Below are positions 1,959 to 44,424 of a stretch of 64,000 nucleotides of DNA, piece after piece; the stretch's first letter is position 1, and each line of letters starts with the position of its first letter. This DNA comes from an uncultured Alphaproteobacteria bacterium (lineage in GTDB: Bacteria; Pseudomonadota; Alphaproteobacteria; RF32; CAG-239), in contig CALXUP010000001.1 of NCBI GenBank assembly GCA_944391715.1, positions 100,676 to 164,675 on the forward strand. Direction: 5' to 3'. Both the position numbers and the translations under genes were made by a program. The notes under the pieces are model-generated. The model did not search any database. It saw only the letters and a list, made by a program, of their open reading frames with translations, and had not been told where the DNA came from.

Positions 1959-3096
1959 CGGCAATCTCCGGCGGATGGCGGCGTTTGGCAAACATTCCCG
2001 GTGTATAAAACAGCAGCAGGTAAACGCAGACGATAAAGGGAAGGATGAGGTTGATATACATCAACGGCAGCAGGCTGAGACTTTTGGCCGCAAGGTTGCC
2101 AAACGACAAATCCATAGCCTGTAGGAGAACCATGGCGATAATGCTGACGGAGATAATCCGGCTTTGTCCGCGGCGGTTGAAATTGCCGACCAGTAATCCG
2201 GTACAGCCCAAAAGAGCAAAAACGATATTATAAAAAGGGTTGATAATCCGGCGGTGTCCTTCGACAACGTAACGGCGTTGATCTTTGGGGGACAAAGAAG
2301 GATCGTTTTGGGCGTTCAAAAGTTCAAAAAAGCCTTTTTCCCGGGCGCTGGTGTCTTTGTCTTTTTTGTTGCCGCTCAATCCGAAATCTACGGAATAACG
2401 CTCAAAAGCCAAAGAAGAAAACTGGCTGCCGTTTTTGCTGAGCTCCTGGCGGGAACCGTTGACCATGATGATTTTGGGGCCTTTGTCGGTGTAAACAACA
2501 CGCCCTTTTTCAGCGGAGATGGTCGTCCGGTTTTGCGGATTACGTTCGTCATTTACCAAAATGCCGGACATTGAGCCGTCTTTTTCATGCGTGGTAATAA
2601 ATACGGTCAGGCCGTTTTGCAAATCAGTGAATTCGCCTTCGCGGAACATCAGGTGTGAAACGTCGTTTTTTATTTGCCATTCCAGTTCGTTAAAAGCCTT
2701 TTCGGCTGCCGGAATTCCGTAGTTATAGGTATAAACGTTGATGACGTATAAGAATATTCCGATTATCAGCGCCGGTTTGGCTCCCTGCCACGGGCTGATG
2801 CCGGCCGATTTGATGACAACAAGCTCCCGGTCGCCGAGCATCCGGTTATATACAAACAATACCGCAACAAAAGCGCATATCGGAGACAACAGCACAAACA
2901 AGCGCGGCATCAGCAGTGAAGTCAGTTTTACAAAAATTCCGACGGGGATGCCTTTGTTGGTGATCAAATCTACAAAGCGCAACGACTGCGTCAGCCATAA
3001 GATGGAGAGCAGCGAAAAAGTTACCAGCAGAAACCCGATAAAAATTTGTTTTACTATGTAGCGGTTTAGTTTTTTCATAAGCGGAATTATAAACAA
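1951..3096 (-). CDS. LptF/LptG-family LPS export permease (YjgP/YjgQ). Probably the lptG-like member, since it abuts lptD.
   Basis: 381-aa multi-TM protein. The N-terminus MKKLNRYIVKQIFIGFLLVTFSLLSILWL matches the family and a periplasmic beta-jellyroll insert is present. Synteny with lptD. Confidence 0.85.
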   Translation of the reverse strand: MFIIPLMKKLNRYIVKQIFIGFLLVTFSLLSILWLTQSLRFVDLITNKGIPVGIFVKLTSLLMPRLFVLLSPICAFVAVLFVYNRMLGDRELVVIKSAGISPWQGAKPALIIGIFLYVINVYTYNYGIPAAEKAFNELEWQIKNDVSHLMFREGEFTDLQNGLTVFITTHEKDGSMSGILVNDERNPQNRTTISAEKGRVVYTDKGPKIIMVNGSRQELSKNGSQFSSLAFERYSVDFGLSGNKKDKDTSAREKGFFELLNAQNDPSLSPKDQRRYVVEGHRRIINPFYNIVFALLGCTGLLVGNFNRRGQSRIISVSIIAMVLLQAMDLSFGNLAAKSLSLLPLMYINLILPFIVCVYLLLFYTPGMFAKRRHPPEIADA

Positions 3097-3154
3097 AATT
3101 ATTAATAAAAAAACAATTTTTTTTATCTTTTTTGTGTCTTTTCAGGTTTTTTTG

Positions 3155-4063
3155 CTATTTCTTGGAAACTTTTTCCGGCAAGCGGTTGTAAATCAGGCCG
3201 CTTAACCGTTCGGGAAGAACCGAAACCAGCCAGGCACCGAATCTGAGCGGCCAGGGAAAAGATATGAGTCCGATGTTTTTTTCAATCCGTTCCGCAATAA
3301 CGGCTGCGGCTTTTTCCGCCGGCATAAAAAACGGCATCGGGCAGGTGTTTTGGTCGGTAATCCGGGATTTTACGAATCCGGGGCAAATGACGCTGACATT
3401 TATGCCCAGAGGTTTCAAACGTCCCCGCAATGCAGCACCCCAAGCCTTGACGCAGGCTTTTGAGGCCGAGTAGGAAGGACAGGCCGACAAGCCGTGGTAT
3501 CCGGCAATCGAGCTGACGATTGCAATGGCTTTGCGGTCGCTTTTATATAGTTCACAACCAATGTCGCCAAGATATTTTTTGCTGAACATATCGCGGAAAA
3601 AGGCTCTTTTTTTGGCTTTTGTCCGGGCAATAAACTGATCCAGAGAAGAATTCTGGTTTTGTCTGGAAAGGCGTTCCCGACGGTCTTGATAAATTTTAAC
3701 GGCGGGAAGCACCGTGTTGATGACGCCGAAAATATTGATGTTAAATGTATTGTATATATTTTCTTCCGTTTCGGTAACGGCCGCGACTCCGGCGTTGGCG
3801 ATAACCAGATTGATGTCGGCGATTTTTTCGCATTGTTCCATCCAAGTCTTTGTTTGCAGTCGGTCGGTAACGTCTATGACGGAAGCATATACGGCAGTTT
3901 CATATTTTTGGCAAAGAACGCGAGTTTCATTGAGCCTTTCTTCGTTTCGTCCGCAGATAAAGAGGTTTTTGGCGCCGTTTTGGGCATAATAAAGCGCTAA
4001 AGCCCGGCCAATTCCGCTGCTGGCGCCGGTAATCAGAATATTTTGGCCTTTTTTAATCATATC
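3155..4063 (-). CDS. Short-chain dehydrogenase/reductase (SDR) family oxidoreductase. The likely start is the internal M at 4063 (MIKKGQNILITGASSGIGR).
   Basis: TGASSGIGR glycine-rich NAD(P) motif near the N-terminus, plus SDR catalytic signature context (S...YxASK: YSASKACV). Confidence 0.85.
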   Translation of the reverse strand, partial: DMIKKGQNILITGASSGIGRALALYYAQNGAKNLFICGRNEERLNETRVLCQKYETAVYASVIDVTDRLQTKTWMEQCEKIADINLVIANAGVAAVTETEENIYNTFNINIFGVINTVLPAVKIYQDRRERLSRQNQNSSLDQFIARTKAKKRAFFRDMFSKKYLGDIGCELYKSDRKAIAIVSSIAGYHGLSACPSYSASKACVKAWGAALRGRLKPLGINVSVICPGFVKSRITDQNTCPMPFFMPAEKAAAVIAERIEKNIGLISFPWPLRFGAWLVSVLPERLSGLIYNRLPEKVSKK

Positions 4064-4151
4064 TTCCTCAAAAAGTAAAAGCTTGTTAATGATTATCAGG
4101 TATATTATCAAAAAATTTTTAACAGGAGATTATATTTTGTATATATCCAGT

Positions 4152-5042
4152 ATGACCGGTTTTGCAAGAAAAAACAGCAGTTATTCCGCCGGTAAAATTG
4201 AATATTCCTGGATTTGGGAAATAAAGTCCGTTAACGGAAAAGCTTTGGACGTGAAAGCCAAATTGCCGGCGAATCTTGAAGGTTTGAGCCTTTTACTGAA
4301 AAATGCCGCCGGTGAGGTATTGCACCGGGGCAGTATCAGTGCCTTTTTGGAATTGTCGGCTGCCGGGAGTGAGCAGAATATCCGGATTAATAAAGATCTG
4401 ATGCGTGAGTTGGCGGCAGCAGCGGCGGATTTGTATGAAGAGAGCGAAGGCAGGCTGGAAAAGCCTTCCGCTTCGGATATTCTCGGTATTAAAGGCGTGG
4501 TGGAAATTGAGGAATATCTGCCGGATGAAGAAGAGCAGGAGAAACTGCAACAGGCTTTGCTGCAGTCTTTTACCGAAACTTGCCGGGATCTTCAAACGAA
4601 TCGGGAAGCTGAAGGAAACAGGATTAAGAATGTATTGTCGGGGATTTTGAGACAAATCCGAGAAAATGTCTTAAAAGCAGAAGAAATTGCTTCCGGTTTG
4701 CCGGATGTTTTGAAACAAAAATTAAAAGAGCAGATTTCTTTATTGCTGGAACCTTTGGAAGGAATCAGCGAAGACCGTTTGGCGCAGGAAGTTGTTTTGC
4801 TGGTGAACCGCAGTGACGTGAGAGAAGAACTTGACCGTCTGAAAGCTCATATCCGGGCGGCGGAAGAAATGTTGGAGCAAGGCGGCGTTGTCGGTCGGCG
4901 GTTGGATTTTTTATGCCAGGAACTTAACCGGGAAGCCAATACGCTGTGTTCAAAATCAGCGGATACCGGGCTGACGAATCTGGGAATGGATTTGAAGGTT
5001 CTGATTGAACAATTCAGGGAACAAGTGCAAAATATCGAATGA
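4152..5042 (+). CDS. yicC: YicC-family stress-induced protein. The ORF opens at 4083 but the family-typical start is MTGFARK at 4152.
   Basis: The N-terminus MTGFARK... is typical of YicC_N, the C-terminal half is coiled-coil, and it sits immediately upstream of gmk (classic yicC-gmk pair). Confidence 0.8.
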   Translation: MTGFARKNSSYSAGKIEYSWIWEIKSVNGKALDVKAKLPANLEGLSLLLKNAAGEVLHRGSISAFLELSAAGSEQNIRINKDLMRELAAAAADLYEESEGRLEKPSASDILGIKGVVEIEEYLPDEEEQEKLQQALLQSFTETCRDLQTNREAEGNRIKNVLSGILRQIRENVLKAEEIASGLPDVLKQKLKEQISLLLEPLEGISEDRLAQEVVLLVNRSDVREELDRLKAHIRAAEEMLEQGGVVGRRLDFLCQELNREANTLCSKSADTGLTNLGMDLKVLIEQFREQVQNIE

Positions 5043-5718: not shown

Positions 5719-6303
5719 TTATTGTCCGGTTTCTTCTTCCGGCGGAATGTATGCTTTAATCTGCTGCCGTTGTTCGGGTTTCATAACCTTATAAACAGCG
5801 GCGGCATTTTTTTCGGCTTCCGGAACTTTCAGAAAAATGGCTTGTTGATATAGATTAAATGCGTGAACCAAATCCTGAGGGATTCCGATGCCGCGGGCGT
5901 TCATCCAGGCATAAATCTCAACGGCGTGCGGGTCATTGTCGGCAACGCGCATCAGAATCTCGTCCAGCTCAACCGGTGTGACGCGGTTTTCTTTGACGGC
6001 GCGGATTGCATTGTCCCATTTACGCTGGCGGGCAATTCTGGCTTCTTCTTCAATTTTATATTTATCTATTAACGGGATTTGATAGGGTGAGATTGCCGGT
6101 TCTTCAGCTTTGATGGCAAGCGGCGTTTCGGTAATGCCGTCTTCAATTAAAACATCGGGAATTTTGCGGTTTTTTACATAAAGCGGCAGATAGCCTTCGT
6201 TATCGGATTTTACCAAGTCGCGGTAAATCTCGTCCAAACTGGTGCTGTGCGCCGGTTTGACGAACAAAAAGGCGAGAAGTGTAAGAAATGCCAGCTTTTT
6301 CAT
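5719..6303 (-). CDS. Secreted hypothetical protein with a Sel1/TPR-like repeat
   Basis: N-terminal signal peptide MKKLAFLTLLAFLFVKPAHS. The segment YAWMNARGIGIPQDLVHAFNLYQQAI resembles a Sel1 repeat. Confidence 0.55.
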   Translation of the reverse strand: MKKLAFLTLLAFLFVKPAHSTSLDEIYRDLVKSDNEGYLPLYVKNRKIPDVLIEDGITETPLAIKAEEPAISPYQIPLIDKYKIEEEARIARQRKWDNAIRAVKENRVTPVELDEILMRVADNDPHAVEIYAWMNARGIGIPQDLVHAFNLYQQAIFLKVPEAEKNAAAVYKVMKPEQRQQIKAYIPPEEETGQ

Positions 6304-41423: not shown

Positions 41424-42131
41424 TTATTTGTTTAAATCAAACAACAAAATATTGCTTTGCCGGTCAATGCCGTGGATTTGAATTTCGGTATTTTCGTCCC
41501 ATATGGCATAGCCGTCGCCGGCTACCAGCGGTTTGTTGTTCAAAGCAACGGAACCGGAGGCGATTTGCAGCCAGACGGCGCGGTCTGCAGAAATTTTGTA
41601 GCTGACGGATTGTTTTTCATCAAGCAAAGATTGCCAGATGCGGGCGTCCTGATGAATTTGGATTGAATTGTTTTCTTTATCTGGCGATACAATTAAGCAC
41701 AGACGGTTTTTTAATTCAGGTTCGGAGAAATTTTTTTGTTCATAATCCGGCCGCAAATCCCGTAAGTCCGGCATAAGCCATATTTGCAGAAAATGCGACG
41801 GTTCCGTGGCGGAAGGATTGAATTCACTGTGCAAAATGCCGCTTCCGGCTGTCATCTTTTGGATTTCTCCCGGGCGGATAACCGAGCCAGAGCCCAGGCT
41901 GTCTTTATGTTCCAAAGCACCGCTCAGTACGACCGTGATGATTTCCATGTTGTTATGCGGGTGCATTTCAAAACCCCGCCCGGGCTCAACAATATCGTCA
42001 TTAATAACGCGGAGGTCGCTGAACCCCATAAATTGCGGGTCATAATAGTTTCCGAAAGAAAAACTGTGATAACTGTCGAACCATTCGGTTTGAGTATGGC
42101 CGCGTTCGTCGGCCGGTCTTAAAAAATGCAT
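41424..42131 (-). CDS. Pirin-family protein (bicupin). The start is at the internal MHFLRP.
   Basis: HPHxxxE metal motif (HPHNNMEIITVVLSG) and pirin N/C cupin pattern. Confidence 0.8.
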   Translation of the reverse strand: MHFLRPADERGHTQTEWFDSYHSFSFGNYYDPQFMGFSDLRVINDDIVEPGRGFEMHPHNNMEIITVVLSGALEHKDSLGSGSVIRPGEIQKMTAGSGILHSEFNPSATEPSHFLQIWLMPDLRDLRPDYEQKNFSEPELKNRLCLIVSPDKENNSIQIHQDARIWQSLLDEKQSVSYKISADRAVWLQIASGSVALNNKPLVAGDGYAIWDENTEIQIHGIDRQSNILLFDLNK

Positions 42132-42211
42132 CTCTTTCTCCTTTGTTTTTGACGGATATAAGACGAGGATGAACTTTTTCAAGCTTATAACCATAAAGAC
42201 TATTGACTTTT

Positions 42212-42228
42212 ATACCGTGCCGGGGTAT
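42212..42228. promoter_or_regulatory. CsoR-type operator-like inverted repeat 1 (ATACCGTGCCGGGGTAT), lying in the spacer of a sigma70-like promoter (TTGACT at 42204-42209, TATATT at 42226-42231)
   Basis: 5-bp arms ATACC/GGTAT around a G/C core. A -35/-10 pair with a 16-bp spacer is read directly. Confidence 0.55.
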
Positions 42229-42238
42229 ATTGTAATTG

Positions 42239-42253
42239 TACCCTATGGGGGTA
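42239..42253. promoter_or_regulatory. CsoR-type operator-like inverted repeat 2 (TACCCTATGGGGGTA), just downstream of the -10
   Basis: Closely resembles the G/C-rich pseudo-palindromes bound by CsoR-family repressors. Positioned at about +1. Confidence 0.6.
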
Positions 42254-42276
42254 TGTGTCAAAATAAGGAGAAAAAG

Positions 42277-42462
42277 ATGAGAAACTGCAATAATCCGAAA
42301 TGTAAAAATCCGAACTGTACCTGCGGCGATAACTGTACATGTGATGAAACGCATCAGTGCGGAGAAGGCTGCGGATGCAACGAGCATTGTACCTGTGGCG
42401 ATGACTGCCATTGCAATGAAGAGCATAAATGCAGCGAGAAATGCTCTTGTCATAAGGGGTAA
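42277..42462 (+). CDS. Metallothionein-like Cys-rich small protein (61 aa; true start MRNCNNPK at 42277)
   Basis: 17 Cys in 61 aa in repeated CxCG[DN]xC units, AAGGAG RBS 8 nt upstream. Directly followed by a csoR-family gene. Confidence 0.75.
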   Translation: MRNCNNPKCKNPNCTCGDNCTCDETHQCGEGCGCNEHCTCGDDCHCNEEHKCSEKCSCHKG

Positions 42463-42466
42463 AAAG

Positions 42467-42757
42467 ATGACGGAAGGTCAAAGTTTTTCGGAACATCCGA
42501 ATCACGAATCCGAATTGCCGCGGCTGAACAGAATCCTCGGTCAGTTGGAAGGCGTAAAAAAAATGATTGCCGAACACCGGTATTGTCCGGAGATTTTAAT
42601 TCAGCTAAAGGCAATCCGGTCGGCAATCCGCGCCGTGGAAAGCAATATTCTGAACCGGCATTTGCAGGCTTGTGTGACACAGTCGTTTGACAGCGAAGAG
42701 GCCAAGGCCGAAAAAATTGCGGAATTGAAAATGCTTTTTGACCGTTTTGAAGAATAA
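42467..42757 (+). CDS. csoR: CsoR/RcnR/FrmR-family metal-sensing transcriptional repressor (96 aa; true start MTEGQ at 42467)
   Basis: LNRILGQLEGVKKMIAEHRYCPEILIQLKAIRSAIRAVESNILNRHLQAC carries the family W-X-Y-Z ligand positions (Cys in the RYC motif, then His and Cys downstream). Confidence 0.8.
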   Translation: MTEGQSFSEHPNHESELPRLNRILGQLEGVKKMIAEHRYCPEILIQLKAIRSAIRAVESNILNRHLQACVTQSFDSEEAKAEKIAELKMLFDRFEE

Positions 42758-42852
42758 TTACCGGGGCTGCGGCGGCAGCCCTTTTCTATTGATTCCCGTT
42801 AAGCTTTTTGCTATAATATTTCTAATATAAGCGAACAGCGGAGAAAGATTTT

Positions 42853-44424
42853 ATGAGCAAGAATGCCAAAGATATTCCCAATGATGCGGTCTCCCGTTTT
42901 TTGGCACAGGAGTATGCCAGATATAATATGACGCCGCAGGTTATTAAAATTAATAACCGGTCGGTGATTATTCCGTGTTTTTATATCAGAAATTTTTTAA
43001 CAATAGCCGATGCAAAGGAAAATTTTATCAGAGGCTATTTTAGCCGGCAATACAGGGATATTAAACGTTATAAAGAAGAGGGCATTACACCGCGTAAGAT
43101 TTTGTTTAACGGCGGAACTTTTGTTGTCCCCTTTAATAATCGTGACAGTGATAAAACGGACAGTGAGATGGTCGGCGAGATTATGCGTGCGGCTCATCGC
43201 GATTATCGGCGGGCGGCGGTTTATACCCGAAAGACAAACGAATGCGGAATCGGGGATGAGCGCCTGACTGAGCTCGGTTTGGACAATATTGAGGCAATGT
43301 CGGAAGCTTATAACCGTTATCTTGTGGAAAATGCAAAAGAAAAAGCTGCCGCATTTGCCGCGTTTTTGGCCAAAGGTGCCAGGTCGGCGTTTAACGGTGC
43401 AAAAATTTTGCTGGAAAATTCCGGCGGAACACGGAAAGTCAGACTTGAAACCCGGCGTTTTTGCGATTTGGCCAAGAAGACGGTTGTCGGAGCCGCTTTG
43501 ACAACTTTGACGCTGGGCGGCGGAATGTATGCAAGCCAGCAGTTGCAATCCAAACAAAAAGAAAAAGACAAGACGGAGAACTTCATCAGAGCTGAGAATC
43601 TGCCAGAAAATGAGGATATGGCAGAGTTTGCCGGGACAGAAGAGCTTTGGGAGGAAGAAGAAATTGTTCCGGAAACGAAGGAAGAGGCCAAACCGGTTGA
43701 AAAAGCCGTAGAAACCCCGAAAGCAAAAGAACATAAAAAGCCTGTGGCGGATGTTTCAAAAACGGGAAGACTTCCGGAAGAAATCAGAAAAAAATACGGT
43801 TTGGATGACGAAAAATTTCAGCGCTTTATGGGGATTATTTTCAAGCACGAAGGCGGTTATCGTAATGTGCCGTGGGATTATCCGACGCAGATGGGGATTA
43901 CCAGCGTTACGTTGAACAGCTTTTGGCGGAATAATAAGGAACTGGCCAGAAAACTTGATTTTCCGACGGCAAAAAATATTAAAAATCTGAATAAAGAGCA
44001 GTGTGAGCTGATTTATAAACGCGATTTTTATGACCATTACCGAATCGGCGATTTTAAAAATGAAAGCATAGCCTTGTTGTTGTTTGACATCCGGGTTAAC
44101 CATTCGTCAAAGACGGCGGCGGAAATTATTGCCAACGGGATTTATCAGGCGCGCGGACGCAAAAATGTTCGCAGTACGGATAAAATTCTGGAACTGGCCA
44201 ACGGTATTTCTGACAAGGCTTTGAATGAACAGTATTTTTATGACCATATGGTCAAAGCCCGGGTCGATTTTATTAATAAGAATCATAAAAAGAACGGCAG
44301 AAAAAGTAATGATTATAACGGGTTGATGAACCGGGCCAATAAGTTTAAGGGCAAATTTATGGCCACAAACCGCCAAAACAAAAACAGTTTGCGACTGGCG
44401 ATGAACAATGTGCGCGGCAGATAA
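42853..44424 (+). CDS. Membrane-anchored protein with a C-terminal GH108 lysozyme-like plus peptidoglycan-binding (PG_binding_3-like) module. The N-terminal 230 aa are unknown.
   Basis: HEGGYRNVPWDYPTQMGIT matches the GH108 N-terminal signature (EGGYxNxPxDxGGxTxxGIT). A hydrophobic segment TVVGAALTTLTLGGGMYA and an E/K-rich linker precede it. Confidence 0.7.
   Translation: MSKNAKDIPNDAVSRFLAQEYARYNMTPQVIKINNRSVIIPCFYIRNFLTIADAKENFIRGYFSRQYRDIKRYKEEGITPRKILFNGGTFVVPFNNRDSDKTDSEMVGEIMRAAHRDYRRAAVYTRKTNECGIGDERLTELGLDNIEAMSEAYNRYLVENAKEKAAAFAAFLAKGARSAFNGAKILLENSGGTRKVRLETRRFCDLAKKTVVGAALTTLTLGGGMYASQQLQSKQKEKDKTENFIRAENLPENEDMAEFAGTEELWEEEEIVPETKEEAKPVEKAVETPKAKEHKKPVADVSKTGRLPEEIRKKYGLDDEKFQRFMGIIFKHEGGYRNVPWDYPTQMGITSVTLNSFWRNNKELARKLDFPTAKNIKNLNKEQCELIYKRDFYDHYRIGDFKNESIALLLFDIRVNHSSKTAAEIIANGIYQARGRKNVRSTDKILELANGISDKALNEQYFYDHMVKARVDFINKNHKKNGRKSNDYNGLMNRANKFKGKFMATNRQNKNSLRLAMNNVRGR

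Follow-up and report, generated by a model that had tools for sequence, protein, structure and literature searches.

A 64-kb stretch of contig CALXUP010000001.1 from an uncultured Alphaproteobacteria bacterium (hereafter the window) contains a compact cassette of about 600 bp in which a gene for a 61-amino-acid, Cys-rich, metallothionein-like protein and a gene for a 96-amino-acid CsoR-family repressor lie in tandem behind a promoter with two CsoR-type operators. As judged from the sequence and from analogy with characterised systems, this cassette is probably an autoregulated metal-sequestration operon with Cu(I) as its most likely effector. Loci of related genomes and metagenome contigs are designated below by L-numbers (e.g., L009, L057).

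Organization and Conservation of the Cassette

The promoter recognised by a consensus scan has a 17-nucleotide (nt) spacer and matches 10 of the 12 consensus positions (Table 1). Operator 1 begins 3 nt past the –35 hexamer and shares its last 3 nt with the start of the –10 hexamer, and operator 2 begins 7–8 nt past the –10 hexamer, which can reasonably be taken to place it at about +1 of the predicted transcription start. In an initial annotation of this DNA, both sites were described as CsoR-type pseudo-palindromes, and both indeed fit the published type-2 operator rule, 5′-TAC-N9-GTA-3′ around G-tracts (PMC3902906); the coordinates, promoter hexamers, palindromes, and peptide recorded there likewise agree with the sequence. 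In the window as a whole, TACC-N7-GGTA occurs four times against an expectation of 0.17, a number that is reached in none of 100 shuffles. The two copies outside the cassette (at 6211 and 28410) lie inside open reading frames (ORFs), have no G/C tracts, and are regarded as chance occurrences.

Table 1. Positions of the cassette features in the window (RBS, ribosome-binding site)
Feature	Position	Strand	Remarks
–35 hexamer TTGACT	42203–42208	+	Consensus scan; nearly all csoR-linked relatives have TTGAC[AT] here
Operator 1, ATACCGTGCCGGGGTAT	42212–42228	+	TAC-N9-GTA (42213–42227) with G/C tract; in the promoter spacer
–10 hexamer TATATT	42226–42231	+	Consensus scan; in relatives the operator GGTAT runs into TATAAT or TATATT
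Operator 2, GTACCCTATGGGGGTAT	42238–42254	+	Core TACCCTATGGGGGTA at 42239–42253, TAC-N9-GTA; at the predicted transcription start
RBS AAGGAG of the small ORF	42265–42270	+	6 nt before the ATG; GGAG kept upstream in all relatives
Metallothionein-like gene	42277–42462	+	61 amino acids; TAA at 42460–42462
RBS AAGGGG of csoR	42454–42459	+	Within the last codons of the metallothionein-like gene; read from the sequence
csoR	42467–42757	+	96-amino-acid CsoR-family repressor; PF02583; ATG 4 nt past the small-ORF TAA
Intrinsic-terminator-like hairpin and T-run	42763–42792	+	G+C-rich hairpin at 42763–42782; ends the two-gene operon

The placement of the csoR start (ATG 42467) directly behind the TAA of the small gene, as annotated initially, is confirmed, and so short an intergenic gap suggests translational coupling of the two genes. 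Since the pair has its own promoter and is followed by a terminator-like hairpin, it is treated here as a two-gene operon. An Rfam scan of positions 41800–43100 found neither a riboswitch nor a leader RNA, but only a chance microRNA match.

A DNA scan of species-representative genomes yielded 87 confirmed loci of the metallothionein-like family, which are hosted mostly by gut-derived uncultured Alphaproteobacteria and also by Gastranaerophilales, Fimbriimonadaceae, an actinobacterium, and Firmicutes; many gut metagenomes from humans, rodents, rabbits, and ruminants also contain the family. Of 88 loci, 52 have a csoR gene downstream of the small ORF in the same orientation, usually after a gap of 4–100 nt, and these csoR-linked loci belong to Alphaproteobacteria, Gastranaerophilales, and others. 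Strict TACC-N7-GGTA operators are present within 130 nt upstream in 44 of 50 csoR-linked loci versus 1 of 25 unlinked loci (Fisher p = 5e-13, a value that overstates the independence of loci that are phylogenetically related). The six csoR-linked loci without a strict operator have a relaxed TACA/TACT version, and the sole unlinked locus with an operator (L057) is evidently served by a csoR outside the locus. The first operator, ATACC-N7-GGTAT, is located 2–4 nt past TTGAC[AT] in 39 of the 44 loci scored, with its GGTAT running into the –10 hexamer, and 26 csoR-linked loci have a second operator 24–34 nt farther downstream. Related loci totalling 617 kb contain 79 strict motifs, of which only 9 lie elsewhere than upstream of a metallothionein-like gene. 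In a separate metagenome scan, seeded with the CsoR clade, a Cys-rich ORF lies upstream of 47 of 49 CsoRs with at least 57% identity versus 2 of 22 more distant ones. These locus comparisons show that the gene pair, promoter, and operators are co-inherited across phyla. The pairing of a CsoR with a dedicated Cys-rich protein, which was initially considered uncommon, is so among characterised systems, where RicR–MymT is a precedent, but the cassette itself is common in gut metagenomes and is present in well over 100 uncultured bacteria.

Flanking genes are conserved only among genus-level relatives (L009–L016), and in distant lineages the cassette is found in differing contexts. The GC content of the cassette is not anomalous, and a recent mobile-element insertion in this genome is unsupported, given this ordinary GC content and the synteny of the flanks in L009–L016. 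A tblastn search with the metallothionein-like protein against 72,556 plasmids gave no match.

In the window, the cassette is located between a divergent pirin gene (41424–42131, – strand) and a gene for a GH108-domain protein (42853–44424, + strand). The pirin gene is shared by the window, L010–L013, and L016 but not by L009 and L014, both of them close relatives; even within the genus, therefore, the left side of the cassette differs from genome to genome. The 523-amino-acid product of the right-hand gene has a GH108 lysozyme-like domain only at residues 328–417 and a long Lys/Glu-rich middle; this gene has its own promoter-like site (TTGATT-17-TATAAT with an extended TG), is syntenic in relatives, and diverges fast (65–91% identity).

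Several other genes lie near cassettes or csoR homologues in other genomes. A protein of ~262–267 amino acids is encoded ~15–30 nt past csoR in Alphaproteobacteria and in a Gastranaerophilales metagenome-assembled genome (MAG) (L031 4492–5280, L036, L039, L054, L071 4479–5264), and a homologue of it (L046 5392–6192) matches the metallo-beta-lactamase fold (Lactamase_B_2). In alphaproteobacterial loci, a gene for a putative fused FeoA–FeoB ferrous-iron transporter, read by eye, comes next (L032 4581–6941) or lies downstream (L031, L036, L039, L054). A small membrane protein of 108–120 amino acids, with FHF[VI]-C/F-CGLP in its first helix, is encoded between the metallothionein-like gene and csoR (L092 1436–1795, L094 3184–3507, L115 ~379–693) or just past the metallothionein-like gene (L057 4174–4518). 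Of three copies read, two (L092, L094) have PACH at the C terminus. The protein matches no Pfam or NCBIfam model, and we take its vicinal Cys pair to recall MerT/MerC-type transporters. On freshwater metagenome contigs, two ORFs for proteins of 76–86 amino acids lie downstream of a csoR that belongs to the same clade but is more distant (L164 1990–2247 and 2397–2624; L175 ~1205–1733). Each product of the L164 pair combines a Cys-rich tail with a hydrophobic signal or anchor at the N terminus and matches no Pfam model, and the two sequences suggest exported metallothionein-like proteins; the L175 pair is like them in size and position. In a Fimbriimonadaceae MAG, a second and different Cys-rich ORF encoding 91 amino acids (L077 3655–3930), whose product starts with MCATLNPSCACQ, is found shortly before the gene of the metallothionein family.

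The Small Cys-Rich Protein

The small ORF encodes the peptide NPNCTCGDNCTCDETHQCGEGCGCNEH, which contains five His and 16 Cys (at positions 4, 9, 14, 16, 20, 22, 28, 32, 34, 38, 40, 44, 46, 52, 56, and 58), rather than the 17 Cys of the initial count. Cys accounts for 26% of the residues and CxC occurs six times; A, V, L, I, F, W, and Y are all absent, and the protein has, initiator Met aside, zero aliphatic or aromatic residues. A cap, C4-NNPK-C9-KNPN (CNNPKCKNPNC), is followed by two 24-residue repeats, CTCGDNCTCDETHQCGEGCGCNEH and CTCGDDCHCNEEHKCSEKCSCHKG, and this internal duplication is marked by identity at 13 of 24 positions between residues 14–37 and 38–61, a value reached in none of 10,000 shuffles. 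Small size, an abundance of Cys in CxC/CxxxC patterns, and few or no aromatic or hydrophobic residues, all of which are found here, are the operational hallmarks of a metallothionein.

Neither Pfam nor NCBIfam has a model that the protein matches at E ≤ 1, and its sole Pfam match at a looser limit is to Metallothio_5 (E = 7.1; 7.3 bits against a cut-off of 25). A comparison of 25 family members with Pfam at E ≤ 10 returned only four families, all of them eukaryotic metallothioneins and all sub-threshold, the best matches being to Metallothio_5 (E = 0.003) and Metallothio_6 (E = 0.045). The gathering threshold was not reached for any curated metallothionein family (Pfam Metallothio and Metallothio_2/5/6, and other Pfam and NCBIfam models), and none of the 25 members matched a prokaryotic metallothionein family or an NCBIfam metallothionein model. 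A PDB search with a 6-sequence profile gave no match, and one with a 25-sequence profile gave only the beta domain of sea-urchin MTA (1QJL; E = 5.5). An AlphaFold2 model of the protein has a pLDDT (predicted local distance difference test) score of 57 and no secondary structure, as would be expected of an apo-metallothionein, although such a model is not evidence of metal binding. Judged by its composition, the protein is metallothionein-like and falls outside every curated family; the initial description of a different, very small Cys repeat protein is in keeping with its two repeats and with these profile searches.

The family has an invariant core, C-x-N-P-x(n)-C-x-C-G-[DE]-x-C-x-C, in which non-Cys positions (N-P-K, G-D-N) are also invariant across phyla. 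The window protein is ~98% identical to its L009 and L010 copies. Codon comparison with L009–L016 gives a pN/pS (nonsynonymous to synonymous divergence) of 0–0.2 for the small ORF with a pS of 0.37–1.0, and the N-terminal 25 residues are nearly unchanged in distant lineages despite saturated synonymous divergence. Family members also occur as stand-alone genes that have no downstream partner and are followed by a terminator and then a tRNA. Because pN/pS is this low near synonymous saturation and because stand-alone genes exist, the small ORF is considered to be translated; the codon comparison shows that it codes for a protein under strong purifying selection, and it answers, in favour of coding, the initial concern that the small ORF might go untranslated.

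The family is nearly absent from protein databases. A search with the single sequence found only six clusters among 5.8 billion, a profile search of the same number found 50 clusters with labels no better than 'hypothetical' or 'unknown' (the CAG:484 copy carries the label 'unknown'), and an exhaustive HMMER pass found seven representatives among 1.84 billion. This scarcity is explained by the miscalling of csoR across the metallothionein-like gene: the window CsoR is held in the database as a 137-amino-acid protein (P0071; 100% identical) that starts from GTG 42341 (42341–42757, + strand), so that the call crosses the metallothionein-like gene in another frame, and many homologous csoR calls are over-extended likewise (123–154 amino acids).

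Cys-rich modules of this kind are also found in larger proteins. In MAGs of Clostridia, Bacilli, and Erysipelotrichaceae, GrpE has an N-terminal extension of 60–90 residues made of CxCG[DE]xCxC repeats (L055 3092–3790, L056 3929–4651, L060 3935–4624, L081 3378–4070; GrpE domain confirmed in L055 and L056), which would join a Cys-rich module for metal binding to a chaperone co-factor. Further fusions involve a 4Fe-4S ferredoxin domain (L059 3791–4129) and a SIMPL/DUF541 protein (L062 1080–1949), and a 193-amino-acid protein with no family match has the module at both ends (L043 4016–4594).

The CsoR-Family Repressor and Its Candidate Metals

Residues 16–92 of the 96-amino-acid protein match PF02583 (Trns_repr_metal; E = 2.9e-24), and the score of 85.7 bits exceeds the cut-off of 22.8. 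Among solved structures, InrS (5FMN; E = 7.6e-15) is its nearest relative, followed by Geobacillus CsoR (4M1P; E = 1e-13). Cys40, His65, and Cys69 form the ligand set C-x24-H-x3-C, with the same spacing as Cys36, His61, and Cys65 of Mycobacterium tuberculosis CsoR. Tyr39, directly before the first Cys, occupies the 'A' position, and Glu86 in helix 3 aligns with InrS Glu98 at the 'B' position. The DNA-binding motif Arg19-Leu-Asn-Arg22 (RLxR) is located in helix 1 and Gln46 lies six residues past the first Cys; an RLxR motif and a conserved Gln are tied to operator binding (PMC3902906). Comparison of 16 diverse clade members shows no variation at P11, H13, R19, N21, R22, Y39, C40, Q46, H65, C69, or E86. 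A hallmark of the clade is an N-terminal P-x-H motif, which often reads HPCH and is preceded by a CC pair in many relatives. These results uphold the initial recognition of a CsoR/RcnR-family repressor with the Cys of an RYC motif and downstream His and Cys residues.

The sequence features of the Cu(I)-CsoR subgroup are present, namely x-C-H-C ligands, which are the defining fingerprint of Cu(I)-sensing CsoR (PMC4235346), a Tyr/Glu second shell, RLxR with Gln, and a type-2 operator. Among the features of InrS-type sensors, the C-H-C core and an invariant His13 are found and InrS is the top PDB match, but the repressor has Tyr39 at 'A', where such sensors have no Tyr, and no nrsD-like gene for nickel export is linked to the cassette; one sister operon has NicO. 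The best NCBIfam match is to the RicR model, at 62 bits far below its cut-off of 175.

Cu(I) is favoured as the effector because CsoRs with the same HPxH motif elsewhere control copA, multicopper oxidase, or cusCB genes. On a Legionella pneumophila plasmid (NZ_CP021280; L178 3900–4000), the csoR product begins MTHHPSHEKE, which includes an HPSH motif, and the csoR promoter has the same tandem two-operator layout (TTGACA-G-TATACCCATGAGGGTATA-TACCTATATGGGTATA); this csoR is located directly upstream of a gene for a copper-translocating P-type ATPase, with a four-helix-bundle Csp-type copper-binding protein encoded nearby. The homologue on a Criblamydia plasmid (L177 3900–3960; 60.6% identity), with a CC...HPSH motif, is divergent from a P-type ATPase gene and lies beside genes for a copper oxidase and a Csp-type protein, and the homologue on an Asticcacaulis plasmid belongs to a csoR–copA copper locus. 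Environmental clade members with 51–54% identity are followed by a multicopper oxidase (L157), CusC/CusB-HMBD (L150), an HMBD P1B-ATPase (L173), or an HMA protein (L165). Moreover, one member of the metallothionein-like family lies directly upstream of a P1B ATPase for which the copper subtype scores best (L082), another adjoins a CusRS/CopRS-type two-component system (L035), and the second-shell Tyr39 and Glu86 are invariant in the clade, whereas InrS does not have this Tyr.

Several observations weigh against Cu(I). Genes for CopA, CopZ, or a copper oxidase are found in none of the ~100 metallothionein–csoR operons seen, and the only transporters inside or beside such operons are cation diffusion facilitator (CDF) proteins (L140, L147, L149, L057) and NicO with DUF1007 (L092); CDF and NicO transporters move divalent cations. 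The order of genes is metallothionein–CDF–csoR in L140 (CDF at 4017–4982), metallothionein–csoR–CDF in L149 (5267–6157), and csoR–CDF in L147 (~327–1220), and in L092 the metallothionein-like gene is followed by the gene for the small membrane protein, csoR, NicO, and DUF1007 (transporter genes at 2127–3587). The CDF gene of L057 (1615–2517; best score ZitB-like) has an operator of its own, ATACCCATTGTGGGTAT, at 2558–2574 in the same –35/operator/–10 layout. In addition, the best solved relative of this CsoR is a nickel sensor, and the invariant N-terminal His13 could serve as a fourth ligand. The ligand fingerprint does not predict the metal, and InrS senses nickel with the same C-H-C core (PMC4235346). 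Profile and ligand analysis, which was proposed initially as the way to assign the metal, places the repressor in the CsoR family with Cu(I)-type x-C-H-C ligands and a Tyr/Glu pair.

The same architecture would also suit a divalent effector (Zn, Cd, Ni, or Co) bound at a Cys2His2 site of His13, Cys40, His65, and Cys69, with the small protein acting as a Zn/Cd buffer beside CDF or NicO efflux. The sister operons with CDF or NicO, the CDF gene with its own operator, the kinship with InrS, the non-predictive fingerprint, the invariance of His13 (often within HPCH), and the conserved His residues of the alphaproteobacterial metallothionein-like proteins all speak for this reading. His is more typical of zinc metallothioneins. 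However, the Tyr39 and Glu86 pair that makes up the Cu(I)-CsoR second shell is invariant (InrS has Pro, not Tyr, at 'A'), the same HPxH motif and operators are found in csoR–copA loci of cultured bacteria, the same CsoR clade adjoins multicopper oxidase and CusCB, and CDF or NicO is limited to about five lineages, with neither gene in the window. A divalent effector is regarded as a real rival, although less likely than Cu(I). The leaning toward copper in the initial annotation survives as the best guess, in view of the copper loci of clade members, but is tempered by CDF and NicO in sister operons.

A broader proposal, which we consider doubtful, is that the dedicated CsoR of this subclade, once a Cu(I) sensor, has been re-tuned to divalent metals (Zn, Cd, Ni, or Co), as CDF and NicO genes in sister operons hint, and that the small proteins form a new, horizontally spread, annotation-missed metallothionein family, whose Cys pattern may be eukaryotic beta-domain-like and whose hosts may include gut Alphaproteobacteria, Melainabacteria, and others. 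If this is true, the sensor would be the first natural member of the CsoR family to drive a metallothionein-plus-CDF response to zinc or cadmium. The sister operons, by swapping in CDF, NicO, or MerT-like genes, would offer a natural series for the study of changes in metal specificity within the CsoR family.

It is very unlikely that the CsoR-like protein is instead a CstR-type sensor of reactive sulfur or oxidative thiol stress, with the Cys-rich protein as a thiol, persulfide, or redox buffer. The family does include non-metal sensors (FrmR is among the PDB matches), the hosts live as anaerobes in the gut, where they meet sulfide, and a regulator of sulfur oxidation that belongs to the CsoR family has been reported (PMC10318464). 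However, there is no variation in the His65 ligand or in the Tyr/Glu pair that is typical of Cu(I) sensors, and the accessory neighbour genes all encode metal transporters or metal-related proteins, with no sulfur-oxidation genes among them. Finally, although the small ORF lies immediately upstream of csoR and polycysteine short ORFs of mycobacteria are reported to be cysteine-responsive attenuators (bioRxiv 10.1101/834739), a Cys-rich leader peptide that attenuates csoR by cysteine supply, or a precursor of a ribosomally synthesized and post-translationally modified peptide, is hardly credible in view of the 61 codons with non-Cys positions fixed across phyla, the strong purifying selection, the occurrence of the same protein without a downstream gene, the fusion of the module to GrpE, ferredoxin, and SIMPL proteins, and the absence of modifying enzymes, a leader/core split, or export genes nearby.

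Proposed Mechanism and Comparison With Known Systems

For the autoregulated, probably Cu(I)-responsive sequestration operon, we infer DNA binding, metal release, metal identity, and metal binding by the small protein, beyond the anatomy and linkage described above, from homology with characterised CsoR systems (PMC3902906) and with RicR–MymT (PMC3944814). Without metal, CsoR tetramers would occupy both operators and block RNA polymerase, with the tetramer on operator 1 filling the –35/–10 spacer and overlapping the –10 hexamer and that on operator 2 covering the transcription start. A thiophilic metal, most likely Cu(I), would then bind Cys40′, His65, and Cys69, and the second-shell Tyr39 and Glu86 would relay this binding so that the repressor leaves the DNA. 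A single mRNA would be produced, from which the metallothionein-like protein and, 4 nt on, CsoR are translated. Since the metallothionein-like protein has no hydrophobic core, it would fold only around metal–thiolate clusters formed by its 16 Cys (plus His) in two repeated modules, and in this form would buffer excess metal in the cytoplasm; its Cys count suggests a capacity of roughly 8–12 Cu(I) or 5–6 Zn/Cd. As free metal drops, newly made apo-CsoR would re-close both operators, making the response self-limiting. Two operators would permit tighter and more switch-like repression, and tight double-operator control would be appropriate because a protein with this Cys content costs sulfur and, when produced without need, could strip metals from other proteins. 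Sensor and sponge expressed from a single transcript under two operators would make a simple circuit, and one that bears on how uncultured gut bacteria handle dietary and host-imposed copper or zinc.

Bacterial metallothioneins have been described as rare and as comprising essentially SmtA/BmtA and MymT (PMC7558416, PMC11672702), and the cytoplasmic Cu(I)-sequestering proteins listed in a 2024 review are MymT, CutC, CopZ, and Csp, a list from which the 61-amino-acid family is absent (PMC11672702). A literature search on the peptide motifs returned only a review of mammalian metallothioneins, and one on CsoR with Cys-rich small proteins returned no description of this family. It would be a third, sequence-unrelated family of bacterial metallothioneins.

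With the beta-domain metallothioneins of eukaryotes (Drosophila Mtn, Caenorhabditis elegans MT, and sea-urchin MTA), the small protein shares CxC-x3-CxC and a Gly after the second Cys, whereas no counterpart of its invariant N-terminal C-x-N-P-x-C cap has been found there. This resemblance may be a convergent low-complexity similarity, because all scores against the eukaryotic families are far below thresholds. SmtA/BmtA and Csp1/Csp3, likewise, are small and Cys-rich and buffer metals in the cytoplasm. Regulation of csp3 by copper is rare (PMC11672702), whereas the gene described here lies behind two operators. Compared with SmtA/BmtA, the 61-amino-acid protein has no zinc-finger fold signature and matches no bacterial metallothionein model, and compared with Csp1/Csp3 it has no four-helix bundle, hydrophobic residues, or predicted helices; the Criblamydia and Legionella plasmids nevertheless have Csp-type genes near a related csoR.

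DmeR–DmeF and RcnR–RcnA pair a sensor with a transporter, as do the sister operons that carry CDF or NicO, and the ligand set of DmeR is H-C-H-H. RcnR has H-C-H-H ligands (PMC4235346), whereas the 96-amino-acid CsoR has Cys at 'Z'. InrS, the nickel sensor of Synechocystis, binds a CsoR-type inverted repeat that overlaps the Pribnow box (PMC3320959), a likeness to operator 1, and differs at the 'A' position as noted above. For InrS and for the RcnR and DmeR pairs, no control of a metallothionein is known.

The CsoR–copZA systems of Bacillus subtilis, Streptomyces lividans, Listeria, and Staphylococcus resemble the cassette in repressor family, ligands, RLxR motif, and a promoter-overlapping TAC-N9-GTA operator (PMC3902906), and the Legionella plasmid csoR–copA locus resembles it further in the HPSH motif and the tandem two-operator promoter. 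The cargo of these copZA systems is an efflux ATPase with a chaperone, whereas here it is a sequestration protein: there is no copA or copZ in the window or beside the cassette in any csoR-linked locus, and the only P-type ATPase gene in the vicinity of a csoR-linked cassette, ~2 kb upstream in L032, encodes a protein of ZntA-like rather than copper type.

By analogy, the closest functional precedent is RicR–MymT of M. tuberculosis, in which a CsoR paralogue, acting at a TACCC...GGGTA-type palindrome, represses the gene for a small cytoplasmic Cys-rich copper metallothionein (PMC3944814); MymT, too, is the product of a small and once-unannotated ORF, with a predicted capacity of up to six Cu(I) (PMC7558416). 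However, mymT is a separate locus in a five-locus regulon, whereas the cassette is a bicistronic autoregulated operon with two operators, and the host is an actinobacterium rather than gut Alphaproteobacteria and Melainabacteria. The 61-amino-acid family also stands apart from curated models, and is set apart from MymT by description, not by sequence. The regulatory logic is therefore known from RicR–MymT, and what is new in the cassette is the protein family, the union of sponge and sensor in one autoregulated operon, and the hosts.

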